A stretch of DNA of 64,000 nucleotides from a virus. Its lineage: Duplodnaviria; Heunggongvirae; Uroviricota; Caudoviricetes. Below are positions 6,691 through 27,008 of the stretch, one piece after another (positions within the stretch are counted from its first letter, which is position 1; every line of letters begins with the position of its first letter). The DNA lies in the IMG/VR virus record IMGVR_UViG_3300037471_001733, positions 22,201 through 86,200 of that record. One strand, given 5' to 3'. The notes below the pieces were generated by a model. That model was not told the DNA's origin and searched no databases. It saw only the letters and a list, made by a program, of their open reading frames with translations. A program made the translations under genes and the position numbers.

Positions 6691-6727
6691 TAGGTGATCC
6701 GTATCTGAGAGCGCTATTAGTTGCGCC

Positions 6728-7216: not shown

Positions 7217-7225
7217 GTGGCCTCC

Positions 7226-7254: not shown

Positions 7255-7276
7255 TGATGGTTGCAAGTGAAGCGGC

Positions 7277-7714: not shown

Positions 7715-7741
7715 GACAATTCCTTTGGAAGCCTGGGTGAA

Positions 7742-7770
7742 GAAAGGCCTGTCAGTGCAGGCCTTTTTCA
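7742..7770. terminator. Bidirectional hairpin terminator between the capsid gene and the next gene
   Basis: GGCCTG-TCAGTG-CAGGCC hairpin with TTTTT on the plus strand and TTTCTTC on the minus strand. Confidence 0.5.
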
Positions 7771-7785
7771 GTGGTCAGTCGTGGA

Positions 7786-9033: not shown

Positions 9034-9049
9034 TTGGATTCCTACAGAC

Positions 9050-9076
9050 GTAAAAAAGCCCGCTCGGGGCGGGCTT
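9050..9076 (-). terminator. Hairpin plus U-tract in the 66-bp gap between protease and capsid genes (attenuator or processing site)
   Basis: On the minus strand, GCCCGC-CCCGA-GCGGGC followed by TTTTTT, immediately upstream of the capsid RBS (TAGGAATCCAAATG). Confidence 0.45.
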
Positions 9077-9099
9077 CGTTGGGCTTGGGGACGGTTTGG

Positions 9100-10182: not shown

Positions 10183-10185
10183 GGG

Positions 10186-11481: not shown

Positions 11482-11756
11482 TCGGCAGCCTTCCCGTCAC
11501 CGGCACGCGCGCGGATGCCCATCAGGCCCAGGCCCAGCGCCAGCAAGCCGCCGACGATGAAGCCAGCCGGCAGGGAGTACAGGCCGGTGCCATAGGCAAC
11601 AGCCCCGGCGCCGCCCAGCGCCAGCATGTCCGGCATCAGAAAGGCCAACAGTTCGCCGCCGGCCGCAATCAGGCCCAGCATGGCGCGGCCAAGGGTCAAC
11701 ATTCGGCGGGCCAGAAATGTCCTGGCACCGGCGATCTTCGTTCGCAGGTTTTTCAC
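11478..11756 (-). CDS. Small hydrophobic protein between terminase and portal
   Basis: 92 aa, Gly/Ala/Leu-rich predicted membrane segments; overlaps the stop and start of both neighbours. Confidence 0.4.
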   Translation of the reverse strand: MKNLRTKIAGARTFLARRMLTLGRAMLGLIAAGGELLAFLMPDMLALGGAGAVAYGTGLYSLPAGFIVGGLLALGLGLMGIRARAGDGKAAE

Positions 11757-13513: not shown

Positions 13514-13955
13514 GAACCTTGGACCTCGCGGCCGGCGTCAGCCCGAACTCGACCAGCCACGCCTTGAAGCGCCGGTCGGCATCGGCCAGCATGGCCACCG
13601 CCGGGTTCGCTTTGATGCTGCGGTCGCCCTGCGTGTTCGTTGTTTCGTAGGTAGGGCCGTCCTGGTTCACCAGTTCCTGATACCGCAGGATCTCGGCGTA
13701 CACGGCGCAGCCTCTCTCAAGGGCGTAGGCATCGGCCTCGGTTAGCACGCCCATCCGATCCAGCAGCACAGACATGCGGCCCCAGGCAACCTTGGCCTCG
13801 TCGGACAAGTGGCTGGGGCAACTAGGTATCTCGCGGCGTGGTTTGGGCTCGCTCTTGTTGAGCGCGCGCCTTCCCGGGTTGCCTGTAACTATTTTTAAGT
13901 GGCTCGGTTTTGGCCTGCGCCCCGCCATATCTCTATTCCTTGACTGGCCAGCCAT
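13455..13955 (-). CDS. Terminase small subunit, P27 family
   Basis: 166 aa; KPSHLKIVTGNPGRRALNKSEPKP...FGLTPAARSKV is typical of P27-family small terminases. Confidence 0.7.
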   Translation of the reverse strand: MAGQSRNRDMAGRRPKPSHLKIVTGNPGRRALNKSEPKPRREIPSCPSHLSDEAKVAWGRMSVLLDRMGVLTEADAYALERGCAVYAEILRYQELVNQDGPTYETTNTQGDRSIKANPAVAMLADADRRFKAWLVEFGLTPAARSKVHVQNADDDQKEDHLQEFFG

Positions 13956-14214
13956 CCACCCCGATCACCGGCCGAACTCGATGACCTAGATCTCGCGCCG
14001 TTTTGTCACGGTGACAGGGGGTACATAGCCCCTGAGCCTGGCCCGGGTCTTCGTGGAAGTCCTTGCCGCCGTTGACTAGCGCGACTTTGTGGTCCAACTG
14101 AGTTGCGGCAGCAAGTCGGCCATGGCGTGAGCACTCAGCACAAAGCGGGTTCAGCCGCAAGTAGTAGTCGCGGAACCGCTGCAGCGGGCGGCCACGCAAG
14201 CGATCAGTGGCCAT
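13933..14214 (-). CDS. HNH endonuclease (terminase-associated)
   Basis: 93 aa; CAECSRHGRLAAATQLDHKVALVNGGKDFHEDPGQAQGLCTPCH is an HNH motif; overlaps the small terminase start, as in cos-packaging phages. Confidence 0.75.
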   Translation of the reverse strand: MATDRLRGRPLQRFRDYYLRLNPLCAECSRHGRLAAATQLDHKVALVNGGKDFHEDPGQAQGLCTPCHRDKTARDLGHRVRPVIGVDGWPVKE

Positions 14215-14271
14215 GCGCGCCTCGGGAAAGAAAAGGCCCGCCTGCCGGAGAGCCGGGGCGAGCAGAAACCT

Positions 14272-14358
14272 GTGGCGCGGACGGCTGGGCTCGAACCAGC
14301 GACCTGCAGCGCTGGTCTTTGCGAACCCGCTGCTTCTCTACCGGCTGAGATACGCCCG
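14272..14358 (-). tRNA. tRNA-like element with aberrant 16-18-nt anticodon loop (pseudo-tRNA or intron-containing)
   Basis: Minus-strand sequence GCGGGCG-TA-TCTC-AGCCGGTA-GAGA-A-GCAGCG[16 nt]CGCTGC-AGGTC-GCTGG-TTCGAGC-CCAGC-CGTCCGC-G-CCA. Acceptor, D and T arms are canonical; the anticodon arm is not. Confidence 0.45.
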
Positions 14359-14365
14359 CGTCGGA

Positions 14366-14392
14366 AACGAAAAAGCCCGCGCGAGGCGGGCT
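14366..14392. terminator. Bidirectional hairpin terminator
   Basis: GCCCGC-GCGAG-GCGGGC hairpin flanked by AAAAA and TTT. Confidence 0.5.
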
Positions 14393-14552
14393 TTGAGAAA
14401 TCTGCAGAGACACCTATCCCACGGACCTGTCGGAATTGGGATAGATTCACCGGGAGGCCGTAAGCGTAGCCGGCGTGGGCCAATTGTACGGCTTGTTGTC
14501 TTGCACACGCAACAGGGGCTGTCAAGGGCTCGCGAGCGACGCCCACATATCT

Positions 14553-15449
14553 CTATAACCCCAACTGCAGTTGACCAAGAGACTTGCTTCCCTTGGACCG
14601 GTTGCACCCAAAGCACTCGCACTGCGTGTTGCTATAGCTGTGTGGACCTCCATCGCGCAGGCTGACAACGTGACCAAGCTCCGGTGCGCCCTCAATCCTC
14701 TTGCCCATCTTCGACCTCGGCGTCTTAATGCCGCAAATCTTGCAGCGCCAGCCGTCGCGCTCAAAGACAGACAGCTTGTCCACCTTCTCGTACTCGCAGC
14801 CGAACTTTCTGGCGCGACGCCGATGCGTGGTGCCGCTAGTGGCTCTGTAACGGTAGCTCAGCTGACAGGCTATCGAGCAGTACTTTTGGCGCAGGTCGCC
14901 ATAGTCCGGCGTGAACGCAACTTCGCAGAAGCCGCACTTGCGAGGCGACCGGTCGCGGCTACGCTCTTGCTTCTTCCGATTGTAAACCTTGCTCCTGCAT
15001 TTGCTGCTACAGAAGTTCGCATCCGGCATCTTGGCCATGAAGTCGCGCCCGCAGGACGGGCTGGCGCAGACCCTGGCATAGCGCAGCTTATTCTGGCCGC
15101 GCTCCTTTTTCTCCGGCGCTGGAACGCACTCATAGCAGAACTTGCGCGGCTTGCCGTTCTTAAATAGTGGCTTTGGGTGGCGGCAGCCGTTTTCATTCCG
15201 GGTCCTGCACTCGTCGGAGCAATGACTGCGGCGCAGCTTCGTCGGCTTGAAGGGCATTCCACAGTAGGCGCATAACCGCGGCGGTTTCGGAGGCACGGGC
15301 GGATTCTTCCGTGGTCGTCCAGCGCCAGGACGGCGGCCGCCAGAGTTTGGACGCGGGCCACCGCGCTTTGAACGCGACGCCTCGACCAGTGCGCATAGCG
15401 CGCCTTTGCAGCCGCCAACAGACAGCCGCCTATACTCGCCTTCAACCAT
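14553..15449 (-). CDS. HNH endonuclease with N-terminal Arg/Pro-rich multi-zinc-finger region
   Basis: 298 aa; many CxxC pairs, then C-terminal GWRCKICG...ELGHVVSLRDGGPHSYSNTQCECFGCNRSKG (HNH); RBS AGGAAG. Confidence 0.7.
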   Translation of the reverse strand: MVEGEYRRLSVGGCKGALCALVEASRSKRGGPRPNSGGRRPGAGRPRKNPPVPPKPPRLCAYCGMPFKPTKLRRSHCSDECRTRNENGCRHPKPLFKNGKPRKFCYECVPAPEKKERGQNKLRYARVCASPSCGRDFMAKMPDANFCSSKCRSKVYNRKKQERSRDRSPRKCGFCEVAFTPDYGDLRQKYCSIACQLSYRYRATSGTTHRRRARKFGCEYEKVDKLSVFERDGWRCKICGIKTPRSKMGKRIEGAPELGHVVSLRDGGPHSYSNTQCECFGCNRSKGSKSLGQLQLGL

Positions 15450-16190
15450 GCTGACTTCCTATACAAGTTGGTATGGCCAGAGACCCGGTCGTGTTGCAAG
15501 CGCGACTGGGTTTCGCCATTTTGGCCTAGAACCAACAAATCTGCTGGACAAAACCACAGTTCCCAGGGCGCCAAGAATTTCCTCTCAAAACGCGCCTCTG
15601 AACAGCAAGGTCAACCGATGGTTTACAAGCCGAGGGCTGGGAAGAACTGATTGGGGTATTGGGGGGTGCGCCTCGACTCTCCCCACGCCCAGCCGCGCCA
15701 GCTGTCAGCGCACGAGCTGCCGCTCAGCACGAGCTGCGCCGCTCGATCCCTGCTGGTGCTGGTGCTGCGCGTTGTCACGAGGGGTGCGGCGCCGCCTGGC
15801 TGTCGAGTGCCTGCGGTTATGTGGCGAGGGTCTGCCGCTGCGCCAGTGCACCCGGGCCGCTGCGCGGCCGTGCTCCTGGTGGTGGCGTGCTGGAGCTCCG
15901 ACCGATCGGCGCAGGCAAGCGCCATGGTGCGAACGGTGCACGAGGGAATGCGGCGCAGTGCTGGTGCCTGCGGCTTAGTGGAGTGCTGCGGCTTTGTGGA
16001 GTGGCGCAACTAGTGGAGTGCGCCGTGCTGCAGGGCATGGCGCCATGGACAGGGGTGCAGCGCTGCTGCGCCGCTGGTGCTGTCTCACCCGTGCCGATCG
16101 GCTTCCGCTGCAGGGGCGCTGGTGCTGGAATGCAGGCACCAAAGCAAAAGGGCCGCACGAGGCGGCCCATGGCGTGGAGTGCTTTGGTCT
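15450..16190. repeat. Non-coding GC-rich repeat region (candidate cos/pac or replication origin)
   Basis: No credible ORF in any frame. GTGGAGTG at 15999, 16017, 16034 (17-18 bp spacing) and 16194; GCTGGTGCTG-type motifs at 15771, 15985, 16095, 16142, 16210. Confidence 0.5.
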
Positions 16191-16440
16191 AGGTGCTGGC
16201 GGCTTTCCGCTCCCGTCCTATACGGATGGCATGGGCAAGCGCGGCCATCTCCCGACCGTTGTCGTAAGGGCCGCGCGCCACCGGCTTTTTGCTGATGCCT
16301 GCGGCTGGCAGCAGGCCAACGAAGCCGGCTTCGTCCACGAAGTCTAGATATGTCATGGCGCCGATGGTCTTGACTGCGATGACACAAGCAACGCTGCCGC
16401 CGCCGATGGTGGGGCGCATGAAAAGGTCCCCGGCTTGCAT
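16189..16440 (-). CDS. Hypothetical protein (last gene of the small-gene operon)
   Basis: 83 aa; junction CTGAGGAGGGGACGCC-ATG with the upstream gene. Confidence 0.4.
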   Translation of the reverse strand: MQAGDLFMRPTIGGGSVACVIAVKTIGAMTYLDFVDEAGFVGLLPAAGISKKPVARGPYDNGREMAALAHAIRIGRERKAAST

Positions 16441-16452
16441 GGCGTCCCCTCC

Positions 16453-16746
16453 TCAGTGGGCCAGCAGATGCCGCACGCTGGCGCCATCCGGTATCCGCAG
16501 CATTGCCGCCACTGCATCCACGTATTCCGGTGCAGGCCGGCGCAATTTGTACTGCTGGTCTCCATACGAGTTGGGAATGGTGCGCGATTCAATCAAGCCG
16601 CGTTCCCTAAGCGCGCGGAATGCCCGGGTGTCATCTTCTGGCGCCACCTCAGCAGCGGCGGCAATGTCATGCCATGAGGGGAGACGGATAGTCCCGTCTG
16701 CATTGGTACGGGAAGCGAGCAGGGCATACAGACGATTGAGGTTCAT
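16453..16746 (-). CDS. Hypothetical protein, possible winged-helix DNA-binding
   Basis: Start chosen at MNLNRLYALLASR (97 aa) because of the CTGAGGGGCCGCGCC-ATG junction; the longer ORF (to 16911) overlaps the upstream gene. Confidence 0.4.
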   Translation of the reverse strand: MNLNRLYALLASRTNADGTIRLPSWHDIAAAAEVAPEDDTRAFRALRERGLIESRTIPNSYGDQQYKLRRPAPEYVDAVAAMLRIPDGASVRHLLAH

Positions 16747-16757
16747 GGCGCGGCCCC

Positions 16758-17132
16758 TCAGATGTCCCAGACGCCATCCACGGTCGCGCCGTGCGCCGCC
16801 TCGTGGGCGTGCGCCGCGATGGCCGCCACGAGGCGCCCGCCGGGCGTTGCTTCCAACGTATCGCCCTCGCTGCACTGGTACTGCAGGCACCGCGCCAGCG
16901 AATGGAACCATGCGGCGGTCTGATTTGGCATGGGGCGCGCCAGCAGTGCACGCAGGCCCTGCAGCGGCTGCCGATCCTCCGGGTAACGCCCCTCATAGCG
17001 GGTTGCGTGGGCGTAGTTGTTGGCTGCACGCAGCGAGATAGCCGCCTGCGCCGCATCGTCGGCGATGCCCTGGGAAACGGCCCATTGCGCCACGGTGGCC
17101 ACGTGCAGATCAGAGCAGATAAAGCAAGACAT
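16758..17132 (-). CDS. Hypothetical protein
   Basis: 124 aa; RBS AGGAGAT 7 nt before the ATG. Confidence 0.4.
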   Translation of the reverse strand: MSCFICSDLHVATVAQWAVSQGIADDAAQAAISLRAANNYAHATRYEGRYPEDRQPLQGLRALLARPMPNQTAAWFHSLARCLQYQCSEGDTLEATPGGRLVAAIAAHAHEAAHGATVDGVWDI

Positions 17133-17182
17133 GGTGTGATCTCCTATTGCCGCTCATGCTGGCGGCGCAGCGGGTTGAAGGG

Positions 17183-17453
17183 TTAGTCCTCGCGCGGTGT
17201 CTCAATTTGATGCGGCAGGGGTCGCCCCATGCCGTCGGCGCAGTAAAGGGACGTAGAAGCACCGCACGGCAGGTATGCCGGCGCGTCAATTGGCCCGCCT
17301 GCCGTCACATCCATACATGCCCCGTACCGAAATTGCCGCCGGTCTTGATGCAGATGGATCAATTCGACCGTCTGCCGTTGGACTTGCCCGCCGGTCACAT
17401 TGTGGAAAGCGCCAGCAGCAGCGCGGCGGATGGTTTCTGATTGCATGGACATG
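17183..17453 (-). CDS. Hypothetical protein
   Basis: 90 aa starting MSMQSE; preceded by the exact junction CTGAGGAGCGAACC-ATG. Confidence 0.45.
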
Positions 17454-17462
17454 GTTCGCTCC

Positions 17463-17691
17463 TCAGTTGAAGCCCTTGTCCGCCTCGATCTGGCGCAGGA
17501 TCTCGACTGCCTCAGCGATCGGCACGAAGTCAGACAGGGGGTCAACAATCGTTTTCTTGCCCACGGTCACCAGCACGACGCGAAACTTTCCGCGCGCCGC
17601 CTCAGTGCTGATTCCGGGCATGCCGGTGGCGGCGCGCGCGGCAAGGGTGGCGGCTCGCAATTGCTTGAGTTGCTCAAACATGGTTCGCTCC
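17463..17691 (-). CDS. Hypothetical protein
   Basis: 76 aa starting MFEQLK; preceded by CTGAGGAGCGAACC-ATG. Confidence 0.45.
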
Positions 17692-17931
17692 TCAGATACC
17701 GAAAACTTGATTGATCGCAGCGCGGCGCAGTGCCTCGCAGTGCATCTGCGCCACGGGTTGATTGATCTCGTCCACCACGTCAAGTGCATCGTTAACGGCA
17801 TCCATGAGATGCGCCATGGCGATATCTTCCGGGTTTGCTTCTACGTGATTGCGCAACTGCAGGCGGGCGCTCAGCAGGTTTTCGACGATCACGTCGAATT
17901 GCTTGACATGCATGGTCACAGGGGTGGGCAT
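17692..17931 (-). CDS. Hypothetical protein
   Basis: 79 aa starting MPTPVT; junction CTGAAAGGTCGAGCC-ATG. Confidence 0.4.
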   Translation of the reverse strand: MPTPVTMHVKQFDVIVENLLSARLQLRNHVEANPEDIAMAHLMDAVNDALDVVDEINQPVAQMHCEALRRAAINQVFGI

Positions 17932-17942
17932 GGCTCGACCTT

Positions 17943-18176
17943 TCAGCGCATGTTGATGTAACCCGGCATGCCGAGTGCGCGCGCCAGCACGTTTGCCGCG
18001 TGGCGGTCTGCAAGGTTGCATATCAGGTACTTGGCCTGCGCGACCGCTTCGAAGTGCGCGCTCTGCGCCTCTTCGTATTCCTGATGGGTTCGATTGCTGT
18101 CGCCGATCATGTGCACGTGGCCACCGATGGCGGGCCGCAATTCCTTGGCGATGCTGATGGCAGTTCGGATATTCAT
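17943..18176 (-). CDS. Hypothetical protein
   Basis: 77 aa starting MNIRTA; preceded by CTGAGGAGCGAACC-ATG. Confidence 0.45.
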   Translation of the reverse strand: MNIRTAISIAKELRPAIGGHVHMIGDSNRTHQEYEEAQSAHFEAVAQAKYLICNLADRHAANVLARALGMPGYINMR

Positions 18177-18186
18177 GGTTCGCTCC

Positions 18187-18318
18187 TCAGTGCGCCGCAC
18201 GAATGGCGGCAATGTCTGCATGGATCAGCGCGCGGACTTGCAGGCGGCGCACGAGGGATTGATCGTTGCGCATGGGTAGCAGAACCCGCAGCGCATACAT
18301 AAGAGAGAAACGAGACAT
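18187..18318 (-). CDS. Possible 43-aa leader ORF of the leftward operon
   Basis: MSRFSLMYALRVLLPMRNDQSLVRRLQVRALIHADIAAIRAAH; RBS AAGGGG; its TGA lies inside the CTGAGGAGCGAACC-ATG junction of the next gene. Confidence 0.3.
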   Translation of the reverse strand: MSRFSLMYALRVLLPMRNDQSLVRRLQVRALIHADIAAIRAAH

Positions 18319-18366
18319 CTCAACCCCTTGCCACTGATTACGCGCGGCGCCGTTTGGTATGTCTCT

Positions 18367-18395
18367 AATGTAGGCGATACGACTACATGATGCAA
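18367..18395 (-). promoter_or_regulatory. Leftward sigma70-like promoter with palindromic operator O1 in its spacer
   Basis: Minus strand TTGCAT-N17-TACATT; the spacer contains the palindrome ATGTAG-N9-CTACAT (18368-18388). Confidence 0.55.
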
Positions 18396-18660
18396 GCCCT
18401 TGCGCAAACTTTTTTCATGCGCCATGGCGGCGCGGCTGCACGTATATTGATAGTGCTGCGCCGCATAGGTGCGGCTTTGCTTTGCCTGCTCGCTTTTGCC
18501 TGCTGGTGCTGCAGCATGGGCACGAGTGCCTGCGCCATGGATGCGCCGCACTGGTCTGCGCGCCGTGCGCCGCCTCGTGCTGATCAGCTGCGCCGCCGGT
18601 CGAGCTGGTGCGCGACGTTGAGCGGCTGCCTCGTGCTGGCAATCGAGCGAGTGCGCGACC

Positions 18661-18770
18661 TGGCGCACCCCCTCTGATGGAAACACAGGCAACCCCCTGG
18701 AGTGGAAACACAGGCCAGGCGCACCCTCTCCACGGGAATTACGGAACCCCCTGAGATGGAAACAGGAATT
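18661..18770. repeat. Four tandem direct repeats of about 27 bp between the divergent promoters
   Basis: GCGCACCCCCTCTGATGGAAACACAGGC / CCCCCTGGAGTGGAAACACAGGCC / GCGCACCCTCTCCACGGGAATTACGG (degenerate) / CCCCCTGAGATGGAAACAGGAATT. Confidence 0.6.
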
Positions 18771-18784
18771 CACAAATAAACTAC

Positions 18785-18813
18785 TTGCGTTCTGTAGTCG
18801 TTGCGCCTACATT
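18785..18813 (+). promoter_or_regulatory. Rightward sigma70-like promoter with palindromic operator O2 in its spacer
   Basis: TTGCGT-N17-TACATT; the spacer contains CTGTAG-N9-CTACAT (18792-18812), about 60 bp upstream of the 18873 gene. Confidence 0.55.
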
Positions 18814-18872
18814 GGACACATCGCAGCACTGCTGCAGCGGCGCCACCCGCGACGAGTGGCACTGGAGTTGAT

Positions 18873-19547
18873 ATGTTTGGAAAATACGGCAAGCGGATTA
18901 CCGATCCTGCGGAACTGCGCGAGTATCGTTTGAGCTATGTCCCGGCCGCGCTGCGCGACCAGTGCCAGCACGTGAAGTGCAAAACCGGCGATGCTGAGGC
19001 GTGGATCTGGAGCGACAAGGGCCGCGCCTACGCGGTGGGTTTCTCCGGTCGCGGCAAACACCCGTGGTCGCGCAATGGTGGCCAGGGAGCGGCCTACTAC
19101 TTCAAAACCCCGGAAGCGCGCCGCTCCTGGGTTGCGGAACTGTTTGCAGACGCCATGGCCGACGCAAAGCGCGCCGAGGAGCGCAAGGCGCAAAAGGCCG
19201 CAGCGCGTGCAAAGCCGCACGCCTTGCAGGTGGGAGATGTGTTGCGCTCCTCCTGGGGGTACGACCAAACCAATATCGACTATTACGAGGTCACGAAGCT
19301 TGTCGGCTCACAGATGGTCGAGGTTCGGCGCATTGCCTGCCAGTCTGAGGAAACCGCGCACATGCAAGGCGTGAGCGTTCCCGCCCCTGGCCACTACATC
19401 GGCGAGCCGAAGCGTTGCAAGGTCTCCGACTACGGCAACCGCGACTCGGTCAAGGTGTCCGAGGTGGCGCACGCCTACAAGATGACCCCGCGCATCGTCG
19501 GCGGCGTCAAGGTTTTCAACTCGTCTAGCTGGACGGCCTACGCCTGA
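18873..19547 (+). CDS. Hypothetical protein (first gene of the rightward operon)
   Basis: Start moved to the internal ATG at 18873 (RBS GGAG 5 nt upstream); 224 aa; no family recognised. Confidence 0.5.
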   Translation: MFGKYGKRITDPAELREYRLSYVPAALRDQCQHVKCKTGDAEAWIWSDKGRAYAVGFSGRGKHPWSRNGGQGAAYYFKTPEARRSWVAELFADAMADAKRAEERKAQKAAARAKPHALQVGDVLRSSWGYDQTNIDYYEVTKLVGSQMVEVRRIACQSEETAHMQGVSVPAPGHYIGEPKRCKVSDYGNRDSVKVSEVAHAYKMTPRIVGGVKVFNSSSWTAYA

Positions 19548-19605
19548 TCAACCAGGGCCGCTCATGCGGCGGCCCCCTTACGTGAATTTCACAGGAGCAC
19601 CGACC

Positions 19606-19908
19606 ATGGGCACCACGACCGGCCGACTCTTCCGCACGATCCGCAGCACGGGACGTGGAAGCGACTACTTCGGCACCTGCGACCAGTGCGGCAAGCACAT
19701 GAGCGAATGCCACGTGAGCCAAGTTCAGCGCGAATATCGGCGCGACGATGGCACCACGTACACCGGGCCCGTGACCGGCGGCGCCTATGGGCATCGTGAG
19801 TGCTTGGTCAAGCACTTCGGCGAACCCGTCCCAGCGGTGACGCGCGAATCCGTGCGAGTTTCGCCCTTTACTGATCCGGCGCGCTTCCCCAAAACGCTGC
19901 GCGCCTGA
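19606..19908 (+). CDS. Hypothetical Cys/His zinc-binding protein
   Basis: 100 aa; CDQCGKH...CH...HREC; RBS AGGAG. Confidence 0.45.
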   Translation: MGTTTGRLFRTIRSTGRGSDYFGTCDQCGKHMSECHVSQVQREYRRDDGTTYTGPVTGGAYGHRECLVKHFGEPVPAVTRESVRVSPFTDPARFPKTLRA

Positions 19909-19944
19909 CCCCTTCCGTAGATTGCACAGCAGGAGCACCACACC

Positions 19945-20340
19945 ATGGGAGCAGCAGCAGAACACCGGGGCAATGCCCTGATCCGCAGGCAGGCCGGCGC
20001 AGCGCATGCCGCGCGCCAAGCCATCGAGGACGCAGCGCGCGCCGCGCAGGTGGCCGAGGACTGCAACGAGTTTGCCCGCCAAGCGTGGGCGTATCTGCTC
20101 GACCCTTCCGGCCTGCGGCAACCCGCAGTGGAGCGCGCAAAGACTCGGCGCGGCTGGGCTAAGCGCCATGCGGAACTCAGTGCCGCGCATTGCGCATGGG
20201 TTGATGCGGACCATCGCAACGCCATGGCCTACCTTAGCGCCTGCATCCGCCGCGCGAAAGCCGCGCATGCGCTACTCACATTTGCGCTGGGCGGCTGGAC
20301 GATCCCGGATCACATTGAAGTGCCGCGCGCTGCGGCTTGA
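19945..20340 (+). CDS. Hypothetical alpha-helical protein
   Basis: 131 aa; RBS AGGAG. Confidence 0.45.
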   Translation: MGAAAEHRGNALIRRQAGAAHAARQAIEDAARAAQVAEDCNEFARQAWAYLLDPSGLRQPAVERAKTRRGWAKRHAELSAAHCAWVDADHRNAMAYLSACIRRAKAAHALLTFALGGWTIPDHIEVPRAAA

Positions 20341-20453
20341 CCCCTTCCGGCGCACTCGCAAGGGTGCGCATTGCGATGCAGCCACGCGGAAGCATCGCAA
20401 TGCGCCAGCGCGCATAACGGCGCCGTCCCGGCTTGAGGCGGCAGGAGATTCAG

Positions 20454-22262
20454 ATGTCAGCACAAGACTTGATTGTTAGGATCAACGCAGCCGCCCAGGT
20501 GGCCCCGGAGCAACTGCCCAAAGGGGCGCAGCCGCGCGACCACATGATTGCCTTTGAGTACACCGACGCCCACGGCACGCGCGGCTGCATGCGCATCCTG
20601 AACACCCGGGCGCGGCTGCTGGCCTTCGCTGAGCAGGTGCGGAAGAACGCGGCAGCATTCGACGGCAAGCCGCGCAGCAAGCCCGCCGGGCCGCGCAAGA
20701 TTGCCGGCGCATCCCCGCTTTCCACGGCGCGCGCACTGCTCAAGGATGGCGCGCGGGTTGAAGCCCTCGCAGCGCTTGAGGCGCGCGGCGGGGAGGTGTT
20801 TTTCGGCGCCGCTGGCGTGCCTGTGCTGCATCAGGTTGCACAGCGCGTGGAGCACGAGGGCCGCCGCTGGGTTGTCACGCGCTGCGCCGTTGATGGTCTC
20901 ATCTACCTCATTCACGAGGCGTCCGGGCTGTCAGCAGGCGGCAAGGGCTTGCCTGAGATGCGCAGCATTGCGGATGCCCTGGCGCGGCTTGAGCTCGTGC
21001 ACCGGGACGAGGCGGAAAACGGCTACCGGCAGCGAATGATTGCTGCGATCGAGCAAGCGGCGGATTACGACCAGCAGGCGGCGCGCGCGGCTTTCGAGGC
21101 GTGCGATGGTCTCAAGAGCAAGGATGCCGCGCCGGTGGCTCAGGAAGCGTACCAGCAGGCGCGCGCGCTGTCGGCGGCGCAGGTGGCGCCCGATGTCGAG
21201 CCGGCAGTAGATGCAGACCCCTCCCCGGTGGAAAGCGAAGCCGAGGCGGCACCCCCTGTAGCGGAAACGCCTGCGGCAGCTGACACCCCTGCAGCGGAAA
21301 TCGAGTCCAGCGCGCCGGCGGTTGCGCCAGCATCCCCTCCGGCGGATTCACAGGCAGGCGCTGCACCCCCTGCGATGGAAAGCGCGCAGCCTGCGCCGCT
21401 TGCCACCGCGCCAGGCCGATCGGATGCGCTCATCGCGCGGGCCATCGCTTGGGTTGCCGTAGTCTGGGGAACCGCCAGCGTGCCGAGCGTTGCGGACTAC
21501 CGCGCCGGCCGGTGCGATGACACATTCCCGTGGGCGGGCGGCAGCCGCGCCGCCGGCTATCTGACATGGGCCGACCTCATTGGCGAGTGCATGGCCGCGC
21601 TGGAGCGCGACGACAGCGCCGACCAGGCGGCACGAGACGCCGCACTGCAACCACCGACCCCCATCCGTAGGAAAGGCCCGCGACAACATGAGCAGCACAC
21701 CCCATCCCGTGCAACCCGCAGTGCCAACCGGCCGCGAGTGGTGGACCCGCGGGCTGCTCGACTGGCACGCCGAGGCGCTGCACGCCGCCCAGGAGATCGC
21801 CGCGCTGCGCGAATCACTGGCTGCGGAGCGCGCAATGGTCCGCGAGCTGCAGGAGGCGCTCGCTGCCCGCCGGCAGGCCGCTTGACCCCTTCCCGGGGAA
21901 TCACGGCGCCACAAGCTTGCCGCCCCTGGCGCGACGCCAGCGAAACCCGAGACTGCACCCATAAAAACCTGGAGCACAGCATGACCTACACCGAAGCCAT
22001 CCAAGCCCTGCGCGACGCTATTGCGCAGGCCCCGAAGGGTGAAAAGCTGCAAGCCTTCCAAGCCAAGCGGGAGAAGATAATAGGGGCAATGCCCAAGGTG
22101 GAAATCTGTGGCGGCGAGCAGTGCATCCGCTATCCCAAGGGCTACCGCTTTGACTGCGGTCGCGAGGTCCACACGGACTGGATGTGGCAACCGTTTGCCA
22201 GCGAGGAAATCGCCATGCGGCCTGGCAACCTGCCGTACATCCTGCGCATGCCGGCTGCCTGA
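20454..22262 (+). CDS. Large ORF with acidic Pro/Ala-rich repeat linker; the 3' third is doubtful (possible frameshift or composite of two or three genes)
   Basis: No stop from 20454 to 22262, but 21650-21980 translates as Arg-rich low-complexity while another frame gives a coiled-coil ORF (21688-21885); a separate RBS plus ATG at 21981 starts a Cys-containing C-terminal domain. Confidence 0.35.
   Translation: MSAQDLIVRINAAAQVAPEQLPKGAQPRDHMIAFEYTDAHGTRGCMRILNTRARLLAFAEQVRKNAAAFDGKPRSKPAGPRKIAGASPLSTARALLKDGARVEALAALEARGGEVFFGAAGVPVLHQVAQRVEHEGRRWVVTRCAVDGLIYLIHEASGLSAGGKGLPEMRSIADALARLELVHRDEAENGYRQRMIAAIEQAADYDQQAARAAFEACDGLKSKDAAPVAQEAYQQARALSAAQVAPDVEPAVDADPSPVESEAEAAPPVAETPAAADTPAAEIESSAPAVAPASPPADSQAGAAPPAMESAQPAPLATAPGRSDALIARAIAWVAVVWGTASVPSVADYRAGRCDDTFPWAGGSRAAGYLTWADLIGECMAALERDDSADQAARDAALQPPTPIRRKGPRQHEQHTPSRATRSANRPRVVDPRAARLARRGAARRPGDRRAARITGCGARNGPRAAGGARCPPAGRLTPSRGITAPQACRPWRDASETRDCTHKNLEHSMTYTEAIQALRDAIAQAPKGEKLQAFQAKREKIIGAMPKVEICGGEQCIRYPKGYRFDCGREVHTDWMWQPFASEEIAMRPGNLPYILRMPAA
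21688..21885 (+). CDS. Alternative-frame 65-aa coiled-coil ORF inside the large ORF
   Basis: RBS AGGAAAGG; MSSTPHPVQPAVPTGREWWTRGLLDWHAEALHAAQEIAALRESLAAERAMVRELQEALAARRQAA. Confidence 0.3.
   Translation: MSSTPHPVQPAVPTGREWWTRGLLDWHAEALHAAQEIAALRESLAAERAMVRELQEALAARRQAA
21981..22262 (+). CDS. Possible independent 93-aa Cys-containing protein (same frame as the large ORF)
   Basis: RBS TGGAG 6 nt before the ATG; CGGEQC...DCGREVH. Confidence 0.35.
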   Translation: MTYTEAIQALRDAIAQAPKGEKLQAFQAKREKIIGAMPKVEICGGEQCIRYPKGYRFDCGREVHTDWMWQPFASEEIAMRPGNLPYILRMPAA

Positions 22263-22404
22263 CGCATTGTCCGGTGGCGCAGCCTTTGGCGTTCAGCGCT
22301 ATTTGAACAAGGTGCGCGGTTTAGTTCAGGCGTACTTGAATAGCGCCCCCCCATGTAGTGAAAACAGGGCATCAACCCCATCCAGCGGATACAGGAGTCA
22401 AACC

Positions 22405-22695
22405 ATGGGAAGTATCAACCTCGGCCGCCACCACGTCGCCATCAGCGATCAATGGACGATCTACACCCCTGGCCTACCTGGCTGGCAGATGCTGGGCGTG
22501 ATCACCCGCAGCAAGGGTGGCGAGCAGATCACGAAGGCGCTGGCCCGCAGCCCGAAGGGCGAGCTCTGCGCGGTGCGTGGGCTGTCAGCCGAGCCGCTTG
22601 TCCAGCGAAAGGCTGAAGCGGCGCTGGCGGCTGCGATGCGCGAGGCCCATCCGGTGGAAACAGATGGCACCCATTCCGAGGGAAACAGGGCTTGA
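22405..22695 (+). CDS. Hypothetical protein
   Basis: 96 aa from the internal ATG with RBS AGGAG; the upstream part of the track ORF is GC-rich junk. Confidence 0.45.
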   Translation: MGSINLGRHHVAISDQWTIYTPGLPGWQMLGVITRSKGGEQITKALARSPKGELCAVRGLSAEPLVQRKAEAALAAAMREAHPVETDGTHSEGNRA

Positions 22696-22719
22696 ATATG
22701 TAGGTTAAGCGCCTACACT
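22691..22719 (+). promoter_or_regulatory. Promoter of the XRE gene with palindromic operator O3 in its spacer
   Basis: TTGAAT-N17-TACACT; the spacer is ATGTAG-N9-CTACAC (22698-22718), 8 bp before the ATG. Confidence 0.5.
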
Positions 22720-22725
22720 GGCATC

Positions 22726-22956
22726 ATGAGCACCTTACCGCCGCGCACGCCAGAGAACATCAAAGCCTTCCGCCAGCGTGCCGGCTGGACGCAGGAGAAG
22801 GCATGCGAGATGGCGTGCATCCACGACCGCCAAACCTGGCGTAAGTACGAAAACGGCACGCTCAAGATGAGCGAAGAGCGCTGGCGGCTGGCGCACTTTA
22901 TGGCCAACCTGCACCCCGACTTCGACGTTCGGCCGCGTACCAAGGCTGCGGCCTAG
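22726..22956 (+). CDS. XRE-family HTH transcriptional regulator (candidate operator-binding autoregulator)
   Basis: 76 aa; IKAFRQRAGWTQEKACEMACIHDRQTWRKYENG matches the HTH_XRE pattern. Confidence 0.7.
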   Translation: MSTLPPRTPENIKAFRQRAGWTQEKACEMACIHDRQTWRKYENGTLKMSEERWRLAHFMANLHPDFDVRPRTKAAA

Positions 22957-22989
22957 CCTTCGCCCTCTGAGTACCGCCGGGAGGCGGCG

Positions 22990-23334
22990 TCAACCGTTTG
23001 GGTTCTGTGCCAGCCAAGCCCGGATCATCGCCTTGACCGCGGCGTGCAGGCCGTGTGGCGCGTAGACGCCACGCACTTCCTCGATACCTCTTTCCTTGAG
23101 CAGGGCCCTTCTTGCTCGATTCCTCTCTGTCGAGCTCTTCCCCGAAGGGGCTTTCGCGGTGGCGTTCATGAGCAGTTCCGTGCCATCGATTTTCTTCTCA
23201 GGCAAGGAGCAGGGGGCCAGTTCGCACTCTGCGGGAGCATTTGAGGGGGGCGGTTTGTTCTCGACCATTTGGCATTGACCCGTCGCGCGCGACGGTCCAT
23301 CATTCTTCGCTTTTCGACGATCAGAAGCCGCCAT
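22990..23334 (-). CDS. Hypothetical protein (weak)
   Basis: 114-aa ORF convergent with the XRE gene; no clear RBS. Confidence 0.3.
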   Translation of the reverse strand: MAASDRRKAKNDGPSRATGQCQMVENKPPPSNAPAECELAPCSLPEKKIDGTELLMNATAKAPSGKSSTERNRARRALLKERGIEEVRGVYAPHGLHAAVKAMIRAWLAQNPNG

Positions 23335-23568
23335 AAGTTGTGATGCGGCCGGAGTGCGCTAGTTGCAAGAACTATCAATTGGCATTCTCAAGGCGCAAGC
23401 GTGTCTTGCCAAGACTTTGTTGCACAGAGAGCGGCATGGATGCCGCTTTTGCGTTTGTGCAATCACCTCGAAAGGTTCCTGCCAGAGGATGCCGCCGATT
23501 GCCCACTATGGGGCAGGAACCAGTTCCACAATCGAAGCGCCACGCACTACGAAGAGTGGAGTTGCGCC

Positions 23569-24279
23569 ATGGACTGCGGCAAGAGAAGAACATGGGAGTG
23601 TGGCGTGACAACGAACTCTAAGAGGCTTTCTGGTAGACCATCTTTTAATTGGTCTATACCTGAGCCAGAAGAAGTTAAAGAAGTTAGATTGAAAGCCAAT
23701 TTGTCTCAGAGAGAAGCTTGTAATCTTTCTGGGATTAAAGAAGTAATGACTTGGAGTAATTGCGAAACTAGGAGAGCCGATGGCACTCCTAAGGCCCGCA
23801 TGGACCCAATTAGATGGGAATATTTCCTTCTAATAGTTGGACAACATTCCAAATTCGTTATTCTTCCGAGACTCGGGGTTGAACAGCCAAGAGAGGCGGC
23901 AGCTTTAACTAGGAAAGGTCCGTCTCTGCCTGGGGAGAACATTACTTTCGCAGTCGAGAGCCGAACTAGTGAAGACGAGTGGCGCTTGGTAGAAGGCGGA
24001 CAGTTCACAGCTCTGACTGCGGCATGTGTGGCCATAGACACGATGGTTGCCTGCAGGAACCTAAATGAACTAAGGGTGTCGCGTTACTCAGGTGGCGACT
24101 TCGTGATGGCAGTGCATGGGCCTGGTGTCTCTATGGACGAAGGCCCGAAGCGTTTTACCCATGCAAAGGCTGCGCCATCTCGAAGGACTGGGACTGACAG
24201 GAACGGAGCAGACCCAGGAGACCCAGATAATGATGGAAATGGAAGCAGAAATTCCAATGGTTTCGACCCTCAGGATTGA
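23569..24279 (+). CDS. HTH_XRE-domain protein with unknown C-terminal domain, in a low-GC island
   Basis: Start at the internal ATG (RBS GGAG); VRLKANLSQREACNLSGIKEVMTWSNCE is HTH-like; local GC about 45-50% against about 65% in the flanks. Confidence 0.5.
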   Translation: MDCGKRRTWECGVTTNSKRLSGRPSFNWSIPEPEEVKEVRLKANLSQREACNLSGIKEVMTWSNCETRRADGTPKARMDPIRWEYFLLIVGQHSKFVILPRLGVEQPREAAALTRKGPSLPGENITFAVESRTSEDEWRLVEGGQFTALTAACVAIDTMVACRNLNELRVSRYSGGDFVMAVHGPGVSMDEGPKRFTHAKAAPSRRTGTDRNGADPGDPDNDGNGSRNSNGFDPQD

Positions 24280-24306
24280 CATTCCCCGAAATAGGGAAGC
24301 CCAGGA

Positions 24307-25227
24307 TCAGCCACCTTGGGCATGCAGGAACCTTCGCATTTCTCGCTCCACCTCGCCGAGCATCTCGCTCATGCGGTCAAGCATGTGGCCCGCAAAGCGG
24401 CGCTGGACATCGGTCTCGCCAAGCGACTCACGAACCAGGCCGGTGCCTCGGCAGAAGCGGCACTTCATCTGCAGCGCAGAGCCGTAGGCACCCTGGGTAT
24501 CCTTCCCTCCTTTCTTGCCGACGCGCGGCTGCGATTGAAGTACCGATCCGACGCCGCAGCACGGACCACAACGGGGATTGAGCCAACTGCGCAGCACGCG
24601 GCCTGTGATCGCCGCCACAGCCTTGTCGGACAGGCTGCTTTGCTGGGCTGCCTTGGTGACCCGTCGATGCCATTCTTGATGCCGAGCTCGCAACTGCTCG
24701 TCGGTCTCGCCCTGCCGCCGTCTCGGTTCGGCCGGCAGCCGGAGTCCCTGCAGCGGGAACTTTGAGGCTTCGATGGTTGCCCAGCGGAACAGCGCGTCGC
24801 GCGCCGACTCCAGCGTCCTCAGCTTCGACAACATCAGCGCTTGCTCGGAGATCGCCTCGCGCTTAGCTTGGTCGCGCAGCGCTTCAAGGTCGGCGATCTT
24901 CTGCTCAAGCACCTCCTTGTCCTGCGCCGCCTGGCTCAGCATCAGCCGCGAAACCTCCTTCGCTGCCGACTTGATCGCCTCCTCCAGTTGGATCTGACGC
25001 CTCAAGGCCAGCGCGTGATCGCCTTTCACGCCGTCCCACTCGACGTGCAGTCTGAGCAGCAGTGGCGCAAGCGCACGCTCGGCATTGCCGCGATACCGGC
25101 TCTCGACGCAGCCGGCGGCGATGAGCAAGTCGACGTCCGTGATGCGTAGTCTGTTGACTTTCAAGCGCTTGGCAGTGATGGCCTGGCCGTACCGCTCTTC
25201 AATGGTGATAGGGGCGTCGGAAGTCAC
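24307..25227 (-). CDS. Coiled-coil protein with C-terminal DnaJ-type zinc finger (two CxxCxGxG motifs)
   Basis: 306 aa; CGPCCGVG and CRFCRGTG motifs; central heptad-rich region. Confidence 0.5.
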   Translation of the reverse strand: MTSDAPITIEERYGQAITAKRLKVNRLRITDVDLLIAAGCVESRYRGNAERALAPLLLRLHVEWDGVKGDHALALRRQIQLEEAIKSAAKEVSRLMLSQAAQDKEVLEQKIADLEALRDQAKREAISEQALMLSKLRTLESARDALFRWATIEASKFPLQGLRLPAEPRRRQGETDEQLRARHQEWHRRVTKAAQQSSLSDKAVAAITGRVLRSWLNPRCGPCCGVGSVLQSQPRVGKKGGKDTQGAYGSALQMKCRFCRGTGLVRESLGETDVQRRFAGHMLDRMSEMLGEVEREMRRFLHAQGG

Positions 25228-25278
25228 AGCGAATCCTCTCGGTCCTGCTTCAAATTTCCAGATTGACGGAGACGCCGG

Positions 25279-25749
25279 TCACGGCTTTTTGGCGGATTGC
25301 ACGGCTTCTTGGTAGATGGACTCGTAGATGCCGCGCAGCCAGGTGGTCACGATGGTCTTGGCCAGGAGCAGCACGTCACCAATGACGTTGCTGGCCATGC
25401 TGATGGGCCACACGATCATCCAGTGCACGATACGGCCAGCTTGGCGCGCGGGAGACAGGTGGGCGTAGCTTTCCCGTCCGGGGTTGTTGTCCACAGCATC
25501 GCGCACGAAGCGGCGGTAGCGCCAGATGCTCCAAACCACGCCGATCAGCACATAGCCTATGGCCCCGTAGAGCACGTGTTGCGGCGGCACCTGGAAGAAC
25601 AGATAGGCCACGAAGCCGGCGATCACCGCGAAGAAAAGCGCAAAGCCGGTGGACTCCATGGCCTCGCAGAAGATGGCCACGAGGACCAGCGCAGAGAGGG
25701 CGATCCAGTTGAGCAGGTAGCCTGTGACCAGGCCCATCACAAATTCCAT
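25279..25749 (-). CDS. Integral membrane protein (about four TM helices)
   Basis: 156 aa with four hydrophobic stretches. Confidence 0.5.
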   Translation of the reverse strand: MEFVMGLVTGYLLNWIALSALVLVAIFCEAMESTGFALFFAVIAGFVAYLFFQVPPQHVLYGAIGYVLIGVVWSIWRYRRFVRDAVDNNPGRESYAHLSPARQAGRIVHWMIVWPISMASNVIGDVLLLAKTIVTTWLRGIYESIYQEAVQSAKKP

Positions 25750-26070
25750 GTCGATTCCTTCCAGAGTTTTCGATCAGGGCATGGCCCTGCTGATATTCGG
25801 CACGATCAGGCGTATTCGCTTCCGATTTGGCCCGGAGCGTCCGAGGCTGAACATTGATTTTTGTGATTGCTAGCCGAGGGACATCTAGCGAACCCGCAGT
25901 GTCCGCAAAGGTTCCTGCGCAGCACCGTGATGCCAGGCGGCAGCCACGAGATCGGTCCCGGGCCGGCAAGCCTAGCTTTGAGCCGCCGCGCCTCGTCGAC
26001 ATCGCATTGGCGGCACCAGCACGCCCCGAACTGCTTGCGCATGGGGCTGCCTCGGCCTGAATTCGGGCGC

Positions 26071-26421
26071 TTACCGCGGGGCATCAGCCCTCCCTGCATC
26101 GAGGCGCAGCAGGTGATGGGCGCCGCGCGGCTCGCTTGATCTGGGCACGTCGTCTTGCCGCTGGAGATGGCGCACGATGCGCTCGGCCCAGGGCTCCATC
26201 AGGATGACGACCGTGCCGTAGAGCGTCTCGCGCAGCGGCTCCCGCGTCTTGAGGTCGACAACAAATCTGCCGGCGCTGTCAGCGACATAGCGCACCAACT
26301 CACGCCGCTCCTCGTCGGCCGTCAACACGTAGCTGCGTTCTATGCCGTCAAGCAGCACCCTCACCTTTCCTGGGCAGCCGCCGATGTATGCAGGGTCCGT
26401 GGGGTCTAGGCTCAGTCGCAC
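26071..26421 (-). CDS. Hypothetical protein
   Basis: 116-aa ORF; C-terminal end GC-junk-like. Confidence 0.35.
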   Translation of the reverse strand: MRLSLDPTDPAYIGGCPGKVRVLLDGIERSYVLTADEERRELVRYVADSAGRFVVDLKTREPLRETLYGTVVILMEPWAERIVRHLQRQDDVPRSSEPRGAHHLLRLDAGRADAPR

Positions 26422-27008
26422 GCGTCACCCTCTCCGTCGCTGTCCAGATTGCGCTGCCACTTGGCCAGCCGTGCTTCGAGCTCCAGCGTTCCGGACAGGT
26501 TGCTCCAGCCTGGGTGTGACAGCTCCAACTCGGGCCCGCCCTCACCCACTAGGCGCCAGCCTCCCTCGTGAACGCCTCCTCGCTCCCAAAGTGCCACGCT
26601 GGTTATGTCGTCTCCGCCTGCGCCGTCGATGCCGACCTTGTACGGGTACGGCTCGCCCAGGTGATGCCGCTGAAACGCCTTCATGTGGCCCACCTCGCCG
26701 GGCGCACCGGTGATAGCGGCGATGTAGGCATCCACCAGCTCCTGCACTCGCAGCGGTTCGCCCACCTTCAGCGTGCCTGCTGGGACCGTGCCCAGCACCA
26801 TCGTGCATGGCCCATCGGGCACCGGCACCCACTTCTTGACCACCTCCACAGGCTCGCCGTTGACCCGTACCGAGAAGATGGTCCGCTTGGCCGGCGCGCG
26901 TTCGGGTTCTGACTCAGGCGCCAGCATCGGCGCCGGGGGCAGCGGGTGGCGCAGCACGGTGGCCCTGAGGGTGTGCTGCCACAGCAGGCGCTTGATGGTC
27001 TTGCTCAT
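26412..27008 (-). CDS. Hypothetical protein
   Basis: 198 aa; 4-bp overlaps chain the six ORFs from 28414 down to 26412. Confidence 0.45.
   Translation of the reverse strand: MSKTIKRLLWQHTLRATVLRHPLPPAPMLAPESEPERAPAKRTIFSVRVNGEPVEVVKKWVPVPDGPCTMVLGTVPAGTLKVGEPLRVQELVDAYIAAITGAPGEVGHMKAFQRHHLGEPYPYKVGIDGAGGDDITSVALWERGGVHEGGWRLVGEGGPELELSHPGWSNLSGTLELEARLAKWQRNLDSDGEGDACD

Follow-up and report, generated by a model that had tools for sequence, protein, structure and literature searches.

The question raised by the locus described here is what a large island of small genes does between the packaging and the early modules of a temperate phage. The locus lies in a 64,000-nt stretch of DNA from a Caudoviricetes virus (positions 22,201 to 86,200 of IMG/VR record IMGVR_UViG_3300037471_001733; hereafter the window), which has 64% GC and the lambdoid gene order of one temperate phage. 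A preliminary description had noted, at window positions 18873-22956, co-oriented open reading frames (ORFs) ending in a small helix-turn-helix (HTH) gene, inserted between the early and packaging modules in opposite orientation, and had likened them to acr-aca loci. Their position and orientation were borne out, the operon being antisense to both modules, and their coordinates proved right: they are eight plus-strand genes (g1 to g8), with which independent gene calls on a public assembly contig identical to window positions 12762-26660 (L081) agree. The unit turned out to be wider than described, consisting of two arms with 16 genes, i.e. g1 to g8 and eight leftward genes. We give about an even chance to the reading that it is an anti-defence or establishment island under Aca-like regulation, acr-aca-like in the way it would work and not a demonstrated member of that class.

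Operators and the presumed regulator gene

Three promoter-like sites and the last gene of the rightward operon form the regulatory part of the island:
18359..18396, minus strand: P_L, putative leftward promoter, (C)TTGCAT-N17-TACATT, with the operator TGTAGGC/GACTACA in its spacer and -10
18784..18821, plus strand: P_R, putative operon promoter, (C)TTGCGT-N17-TACATT, with the operator TGTAGTC-N5-GCCTACA
22692..22720, plus strand: P_g8, putative g8 promoter, (C)TTGAAT-N16-TACACT, with the operator TGTAGGT-N5-GCCTACA
22726-22956, plus strand: g8, 76 aa, XRE/MqsA-like HTH

A 19-bp palindrome, TGTAG-N9-CTACA, is present in three copies in the 64 kb, against 0.00 expected, at 18793 (operon promoter), 22699 (g8 promoter) and 18369 (leftward promoter). 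The claim that the operon and g8 promoters carry a common operator thus holds, and the third copy, at 18369, had been missed. The arms of the operator are 7 bp long, TGTAG(G/T)(C/T), with 5 bp between them, the full form being TGTAG(G/T)(C/T)-N5-(G/A)(C/A)CTACA. In all three TTGnnT-N16/17-TACAyT elements the palindrome spans the spacer and overlaps the -10 at the same place, so that a bound protein would exclude RNA polymerase. P_L and P_R are divergent, sigma-70-like, 390 bp apart, and form a 38-nt inverted repeat (82% complementary). It is this conserved arrangement that suggests promoter function for P_L, P_R and P_g8.

The product of g8 is indeed the small XRE HTH protein described earlier at the distal end of the operon: it matches HTH_31 (PF13560, 29.3 bits against a cut-off of 27, E 1.1e-6), HTH_3 (E 4e-4) and phrog_3, 'transcriptional repressor' (E 2e-7), with sub-threshold matches to MqsA and RstR (NCBIfam), and shares 32% identity with the HTH domain of the product of a neighbouring gene, r2 (see below). 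We presume that g8 is the repressor of P_L, P_R and P_g8 and that it would bind the operator. Its ATG lies 6 nt 3' of the -10 of P_g8 and it is the sole operon gene without a Shine-Dalgarno sequence, so that the g8 message would be nearly leaderless.

According to the proposed mechanism, P_L would drive the eight leftward genes, P_R would drive g1 to g7 and P_g8 would make the g8 message. On entry into a cell without g8, host RNA polymerase would fire P_L and P_R at once; g8 would then build up, bind as a dimer and occlude the three promoters, and in a lysogen it would keep the island and itself at a low set-point. The cargo would act on host defences or on the establishment of the incoming DNA, and would be drawn from a domain pool of 'polyvalent' invasion proteins of phages and conjugative elements. 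What the analysis shows is the genes, the three operator copies, the HTH assignment of g8, the variability of the island between phages and the homology links; promoter activity, operator binding by g8, early timing and an anti-defence role are inferred. Constitutive-type promoters blocked by an autoregulating repressor from the end of the operon are the anatomy expected if a module fires on entry and is shut off by its own product, which is established behaviour of acr-aca loci. In lambda, the DNA packaged last enters the cell first, and if cos lies just upstream of the genes for a 93-aa HNH protein (HNH93) and TerS, as in HK97-type phages, the island would be ~2-9 kb from the first-entering end.

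The leftward arm consists of the following features:
16150..16168, minus strand: intrinsic terminator, GGGCCGC-CTCGT-GCGGCCC then TTTTGCTTTG, 21 nt past the last leftward stop
16189..18318, minus strand: leftward arm, eight small orphan genes under the same operator (P_L)
18187-18318, minus strand: leftward gene 1, 43 aa
17943-18176, minus strand: leftward gene 2, 77 aa
17692-17931, minus strand: leftward gene 3, 79 aa
17463-17681, minus strand: leftward gene 4, 72 aa
17183-17452, minus strand: leftward gene 5, 89 aa
16758-17132, minus strand: leftward gene 6, 124 aa
16453-16746, minus strand: leftward gene 7, 97 aa
16189-16440, minus strand: leftward gene 8, 83 aa

These genes are backed by the gene calls on L081 and by high third-position GC. 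Four of the seven junctions between them contain TGAGGAGCGAACCATG, in which stop, Shine-Dalgarno sequence and start are tightly coupled, and two contain close variants of it. No Pfam or PHROG match was obtained for their products, apart from a sub-threshold match of the 97-aa protein to a Crp-type winged helix, and tblastn with the concatenated proteins found no homologue in the phage or plasmid collections. Being closed by an intrinsic terminator, the leftward arm is a separate unit; since this terminator stands before the gene for a 298-aa HNH protein and a second terminator-like site (14394-14372) before HNH93/TerS, P_L is not obviously feeding the packaging genes. On the plus strand, 15444-15517 gave a sub-threshold Rfam match to the SymR antitoxin small RNA (31 bits against a gathering score of 61, E 0.008), which begins at the 5' end of the 298-aa HNH gene and reaches the ORF-free 740-nt gap before the leftward-arm terminator; it is probably due to chance.

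Cargo genes and their relatives

The operon genes upstream of g8 are:
18873-19547, plus strand: g1, 224 aa, with an N-terminal alpha/beta domain, a long helix and a C-terminal beta-barrel domain
19606-19908, plus strand: g2, 100 aa, predicted to bind zinc (C25-x2-C28 ... H63-x2-C66)
19945-20340, plus strand: g3, 131 aa, the most conserved cargo gene
20454..21670, plus strand: g4, conserved part of ~395-405 aa, ORF open to 22262
21688-21885, plus strand: g5, 65 aa, probably a coiled coil, read in the +1 frame relative to the open ORF of g4; missing from the earlier list
21981-22262, plus strand: g6, 93 aa
22405-22695, plus strand: g7, 96-aa orphan, Shine-Dalgarno sequence CAGGAG

Third-codon-position GC tracks the frames of g1 to g8. 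The Shine-Dalgarno sequence (C)AGGAG is located 7-9 nt 5' of the start in g1 to g4, g6 and g7 (g6 having its own form, CTGGAG), and that of g5 is weaker (AGGAAAGG). Seven of the eight operon proteins have a C-terminal Ala, g4 being excepted because its end is undefined. A homologue elsewhere or a match to a protein-family model was found for six of the eight (g1 to g4, g6 and g8).

The g1 protein is a member of a widespread uncharacterised phage family, relatives of which are carried by hundreds of viral contigs. Around its homologues in viral contigs, an O-like or DnaC gene is present within a few kb in 11 of 80 loci and a detectable terminase in none of the 80. g2 was previously noted as a CxxC zinc protein, and this stands: the CxxC...HxxC residues are kept in plasmid homologues, and zinc binding is predicted. 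Homologues of g2 with ~48% identity are found on 667 plasmids (tblastn), and others with 66-75% identity occur in two viral contigs amid exonuclease, RecT, SSB and integrase genes (named by eye from the translations). The tblastn query used was a concatenation of g2, g3, g5, g6 and g7, which gave matches in plasmids and none in phages, 557 of the 668 matching records of the plasmid search being typed conjugative and most of the records being Klebsiella; in a word-indexed protein search, the same query returned only the window's own 602-aa ORF. The g3 protein shares 65% identity with a protein encoded on the Aeromonas caviae conjugative plasmid NZ_CP068231, where the gene adjoins those for a 3'-5' exonuclease, an EcoRI-family methyltransferase and a PLD-family protein, and 67% identity with a protein of a viral contig (L090).

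The large acidic-repeat protein of the preliminary description corresponds to g4. An acidic Ala/Pro/Glu repeat linker (residues ~230-325) does connect an N-domain (1-~230) to a small C-domain (326-394), but the frame has no stop before g6, leaving 602 codons open. Conservation ends at residue 394 and is followed by ~100 Arg-rich codons, in frame into g6; beyond the conserved part, codon-position GC moves to the +1 frame of g5. The only close homologue of g4 among 5.8 billion proteins, encoded by a prophage of Azohydromonas aeria (773 codons), is likewise open, into a different downstream domain. Chance at 70-80% GC, true fusion and recoding are possible causes of the missing stop. Programmed -1 frameshifting, ending g4 at an out-of-frame TAG (21668), was not adopted because no slippery heptamer was seen on inspection. 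A full HMMER search found ~28 remote homologues of the N-domain in proteins of 95-1000 aa, and no g4 homologue in viral contigs was returned. The model of the N-domain has a predicted local distance difference test score (pLDDT) of 91 and no solved counterpart.

Support for g5 comes from the shift of third-position GC to its frame and from its stop and the TGACCCCTTCC junction that follows, as for g2 and g3; tblastn found no homologue of it in the phage or plasmid collections. Stand-alone homologues of g6 are present in metagenomes (P0128, 95 aa, 46% identity; P0152, 101 aa). The cysteines of g6, by which it had been characterised as a Cys-rich protein, are not kept in these homologues, so that this character is incidental. 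g7 had zero matches in Pfam, PHROG, PADLOC, NCBIfam, PDB sequences and the phage or plasmid collections.

No anchor led to a relative other than the A. aeria prophage (contig L082). A megablast search of 50,697 phage records with the region gave zero matches, and when r3, the gene that borders the island on the right, served as anchor, this prophage alone came back from single-protein and alignment scans of viral and genome collections. Its TerS and TerL share 83-85% identity with those of the window (TerL 85%), and a plus-strand island of ~20 called genes occupies the same position in it, with the packaging genes on one side and the r3 homologue on the other. Of these, only g3 (76% identity) and g4 (58-65%) are common to both phages; the flanks are conserved, r3 with 46% identity and the first leftward gene (43 aa in the window) with 48%. 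A near-complete difference in gene content between two such phages is as expected of an accessory hot-spot. The sister island encodes i) a 436-aa AcrVA2 homologue (PDB 7ci1, E 8e-18), whose AcrVA2-like precomputed match was not reproduced in a Pfam search, the homology resting on PDB 7ci1, ii) an LPD30-LPD29 protein, and iii) a tandem MqsA-like HTH protein weakly similar to g8. AcrVA2 is a validated anti-Cas12a protein (bioRxiv 10.1101/2022.11.29.518452). Four promoters of the sister island align with the three of the window, with TTG, CGCCTA and a downstream CA invariant, and P_L aligns with six other island promoters from both phages. The spacer box of the Azohydromonas promoters differs (CATGCC-N4-CGCC), and the HTH proteins differ too. 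On the basis of two genomes, the phages appear to share a promoter family with a phage-specific operator spacer, consistent with a regulator and an operator that can be exchanged as a pair.

Domains of g1 and g4 were also found joined in larger proteins. In a 1000-aa metagenomic protein (P0145), the g4 N-domain is fused to the g1 C-domain at the end (44% identity, E 5e-26). Its contig (L094; JGI Ga0268732_1000602) carries RadC then P0145 (1122-4675), with small genes on the same strand, HNH on the opposite strand, and RusA and DnaB after; the position and orientation of the island are thus repeated in an otherwise unrelated phage contig. In another protein, P0147, the g4 N-domain is followed by an LPD30-LPD29-like region and then by a tail like the g4 C-domain, and the g4 C-domain also matches the tail after LPD29 in the LPD30-LPD29 protein of the sister phage (E 4e-9).

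Junctions, repeats and surrounding genes

Repeated sequences of the island other than the operator include:
19906-19916, 20338-20348 and 21883-21893, plus strand: junction motif TGACCCCTTCC, at the stops of g2, g3 and g5
18664..18766, plus strand: repeats (A/C)CCCCT-N4-5-GGAAACA, between the divergent promoters

TGACCCCTTCC has only three exact copies in the 64 kb. The ends of g2, g3 and g5 read GC(C/T)-TGA-CCCCTTCC, and within the window CCCCTTCC is found only at these three stops. The sister island (L082 7117-22197) contains 19 copies of CCCCTTCC against 0.8 expected, all on the plus strand and mostly at or just past stop codons in gene junctions. A typical junction has the form GCCTGACCCCTTCCGC..AGGAG-N7-ATG, in which CCCCUUCC could pair with the downstream Shine-Dalgarno sequence over <=4 bp (by inspection). 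The motif could mark the boundaries of cassettes, act in silencing or be a signal for translation. CCCCTTCC resembles the stoperators of mycobacteriophage L5 and the start-associated sequences of cluster K mycobacteriophages in being short and asymmetric, in keeping one orientation to transcription and in recurring at many gene boundaries; it differs from them in its sequence, in being confined to the island and in standing directly past stop codons. A role in recombination and one in translation are equally possible.

It is conceivable, although quite unlikely, that the island is a cassette array of an undescribed kind, its modules bounded by GCC-TGA-CCCCTTCC ... AGGAG-N7-ATG and provided with their own promoter family and a swappable HTH/operator pair, that the junction serves exchange or stoperator-like silencing, that g1 to g7 and the eight leftward genes encode new anti-defence or takeover proteins, and that g1 represents a widespread family with a new fold. 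In such an array the junction would mediate the exchange of counter-defence cassettes between phages and plasmids by short-homology recombination, e.g. by the phage RecT, or alternatively would silence in the manner of a stoperator. Such an array would account for the finding that only 2 of ~20 island genes are common to phages with 85%-identical terminases, as well as for the decayed cassette fragments in the promoter region.

Repeat families D1, D2, D8 and D10 tie 18664-18766 to 21249-21385 in g4 and to 22643-22689 at the end of g7. The repeat unit of the g4 linker, GCACCCCCTnnnGnGGAAA, encodes Ala-Pro-Pro-x-x-Glu, and a related copy is present in an intergenic region of the sister phage. 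The GGAAACA repeats upstream of P_R and P_g8 were considered as iterons or activator sites and rejected as such; since they share the unit of the g4-linker coding repeats, they are more likely decayed or duplicated coding fragments, which suggests that segments consisting of linker fragment, promoter and operator have been duplicated within the island. In the 113-nt spacer between g3 and g4, a hairpin (20366-20403) with a 14-bp stem (GCGCAUUGCGAUGC / GCAUCGCAAUGCGC) and no U-tract was observed, the fold of the whole spacer having a z-score of -2.2; it might act in processing or stability, or else as an attenuator. Neither the P_R leader nor the g7-g8 junction folds better than shuffled sequences, and Rfam gave sub-threshold matches only.

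The phage that hosts the island is a temperate cos phage of the HK97 type, and its gene order is lambdoid. The island is flanked on one side by the packaging module (HNH genes, TerS and TerL) and on the other by the distal end of the minus-strand early arm, to its right, which encodes an O-like initiator, a DnaC-like loader and RusA; RecT, YqaJ exonuclease and 7-deazaguanine genes are found in a plus-strand arm. The features outside the island referred to here are:
~117 to 15449, minus strand: tail and head genes, including those for the major capsid protein, protease, portal, TerL, TerS, the 93-aa HNH and the 298-aa HNH
7786-9033, minus strand: major capsid protein
11753-13513, minus strand: TerL
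22990-23334, minus strand: r1, 92-114 aa, convergent
23569-24279: r2, 236 aa, N-terminal HTH and uncharacterised C-terminal domain
24307-25227, minus strand: r3, 306 aa, coiled-coil region and two CxxCxGxG motifs (DnaJ-type zinc-finger-like)
44329-45180: cI-like gene
52485-53357, plus strand: possible DpdA-like gene upstream of QueC, no Pfam match
53354-53890, plus strand: QueC, in a DNA-modification cluster with a radical-SAM QueE-like gene, PTPS/QueD and RdgC
56035-56616, plus strand: Mom-like protein, sub-threshold

The segment at 22990-24300 has 53% GC, with promoter-like sites between r1 and r2, and may have been inserted more recently, bringing a regulator of its own. In both phages the early arm ends with r3, which borders the island on the right; the C-terminal sequence of its product shows strong conservation between the window and the sister phage (LVRESLGETD..RRFA.H.LDRM.EML). 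A DNA-modification cluster occupies 52485-56616 in the early plus-strand arm; the DNA of the phage probably carries 7-deazaguanine modifications of the phage's own making, in which case they would be a further investment against restriction.

Alternative readings and known systems

A role in counter-defence or establishment is favoured because the sister island encodes an AcrVA2 homologue, because g2 and g3 have relatives on plasmids, and because the turnover of the cargo is near-complete. As to the earlier suggestion of an acr-aca-like locus, the distal HTH gene and the inverted-repeat operators support it, but neither Acr nor Aca matches were found for the window genes and the case for counter-defence is circumstantial. 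A number of results weigh against our reading. The Pfam Aca2_YdiL model, which covers the Aca2 family only and was the test of Aca membership, gave g8 an E value of 0.086 and 13.5 bits against a cut-off of 23.8, below threshold, and no PDB sequence, those of solved Aca proteins included, matched g8 at E<=0.1. No known Acr homologue was found among the window genes in Pfam, PHROG or NCBIfam (g1 to g8) or in PDB sequences (g2, g3, g6, g7 and g8), and the window products matched no known anti-defence or defence protein and no solved fold. Structure prediction, which the preliminary description had advocated, yielded confident models of g1 and the g4 N-domain, but the predicted folds offer no functional clue, structure searches with the two models returning only generic SH3/Tudor/chromo-like barrels (Z <=6.1). 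The AcrVA2 and LPD29/30 genes lie in the sister phage and not in the window, and since there is a single related phage, the co-variation of operator and regulator rests on two genomes. A generic sigma-70 scan calls none of P_L, P_R and P_g8, the reason being that agreement of their -35 elements with the consensus is limited to TTG or TTGA, and a metagenome scan for the operator pattern gave one match, in an unrelated contig of 43% GC, which we judged to be chance. The plasmid contexts of g2 and g3 are accessory regions, and at most putative leading regions. Finally, for phage polyvalent proteins, late packaging and injection was proposed by Iyer, Burroughs, Anand, de Souza and Aravind in 2017, rather than early expression (PMC5512222).

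Some of the same observations can be accommodated otherwise. The promoters of its own, the leftward terminator, the orientation against the flanking operons and the adjacent packaging genes would suit a lysogenic-conversion ('moron') island, whose expression in the prophage benefits the lysogen (superinfection exclusion, defence or host physiology) and which g8 tunes and does not shut off. Such independent, counter-oriented placement is moron-like in lambdoid phages, hot-spots are common to defence and anti-defence genes, and an autoregulated leaderless repressor message would suit steady expression in a lysogen. We nevertheless consider this unlikely, since the PADLOC defence models gave 0 families for g1 to g8, r1 and r2 at E<=0.01, the operator over the -10 of both cargo promoters predicts silencing in the presence of g8, and the homology links are to anti-CRISPR, LPD domains and conjugative plasmids and not to defence systems. 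The adjacency to packaging genes, alike in the window, the sister phage and L094, would also be accounted for if g1, g4 and perhaps others were virion cargo, made late, packaged in the head and injected; the presence of g1 and g4 domains in 800-1000-aa multi-domain proteins, one with LPD29, and the packaging and injection argument of Iyer et al. (PMC5512222) point the same way. This is very doubtful, as transcription would run away from the structural operon from operator-bearing promoter-like sites, neither a MuF-type nor another known head-targeting domain was found (Pfam, PHROG), and no late-promoter features were identified.

The divergent promoters sharing an operator and the autoregulated small HTH gene resemble a cro/cI-type switch, so that P_L, P_R and g8 might be the immunity-like core of a decayed nested element, or a packaging-access switch, with the cargo as hitch-hikers. 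The decayed coding repeats between the promoters, a second HTH of the same subfamily (r2) in the adjacent 53% GC segment and the sub-threshold winged-helix-like match in the 97-aa leftward gene fit this idea. There is only a slim chance that it is correct: the island is without an integrase, replication or packaging gene of its own, terminators stand between P_L and the packaging genes, a separate cI-like region is present at ~44.3-45.2 kb, and the sister phage has kept both the promoter family and the place of the island.

If the island is one of anti-defence or establishment genes, it would provide ~15 candidate counter-defence or host-takeover proteins and extend the picture of an Aca protein controlling several operons to an unrelated HTH protein and unrelated cargo, with the simple logic of one small repressor, three operators and two divergent cargo promoters. 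g1 has a confident predicted structure with no solved fold matched, g2 and g3 reach large Klebsiella plasmids, and the junction motif and promoter family are possible signatures for islands invisible to protein homology. If that reading is wrong, the island would be an ordinary moron-type block of orphan genes.

The island is like acr-aca loci in having small genes of unknown function followed by a small HTH gene, and inverted-repeat operators overlapping promoters: such an operator is found in the promoter of the regulator's operon (P_R and P_g8) and also in P_L. One regulator with predicted sites at its own and adjacent operons, one of them divergent, is a further likeness; Aca proteins often control neighbouring operons, and LPD29 genes occur in Aca-regulated (aca4) operons (PMC13551039; the Aca proteins concerned are Aca1, Aca2, Aca4 and Aca11-14). 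Through the sister island, with its LPD30-LPD29 gene and AcrVA2 homologue, the likeness extends to gene content, LPD29 being also present in aca4 operons. The differences are that g8, as tested with the Aca2 model, belongs to no described Aca family, that it has an internal, nearly leaderless promoter of its own besides the operon promoter, and that the island, with 16 genes in two arms, is far larger than typical loci. Because there is no Acr homologue in the window and g8 fits no Aca model, we did not file the island as acr-aca.

Polyvalent proteins offer another parallel. Solo LPD domains near phage structural genes have been proposed to aid the early invasion phase (PMC5512222). Multi-domain proteins of 800-1000 aa, of which one has LPD29, also contain the N-domain and the C-terminal tail of g4 and the C-domain of g1; the solo forms adjoin phage structural genes, the island abutting HNH, TerS, TerL and portal genes and keeping the same position in L082 and L094, and g2 and g3 are common to conjugative plasmids. 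A link to this pool would run via fusions in other genomes, as no Pfam LPD domain was found in the window proteins and the island thus has no catalogued LPD of its own. It differs in having separate small genes under a repressor in place of one large polypeptide, and early transcription is proposed here against packaging and injection there.

Among lambdoid morons are bor and lom of lambda. Like these, the island is a block with transcription of its own that runs counter to its neighbours, and it sits where the end of an early or late arm meets the packaging genes. It differs from them in lacking a membrane or lipoprotein signature, in being far larger, in having its own repressor and operator set, and in its homology links to anti-CRISPR and plasmids.

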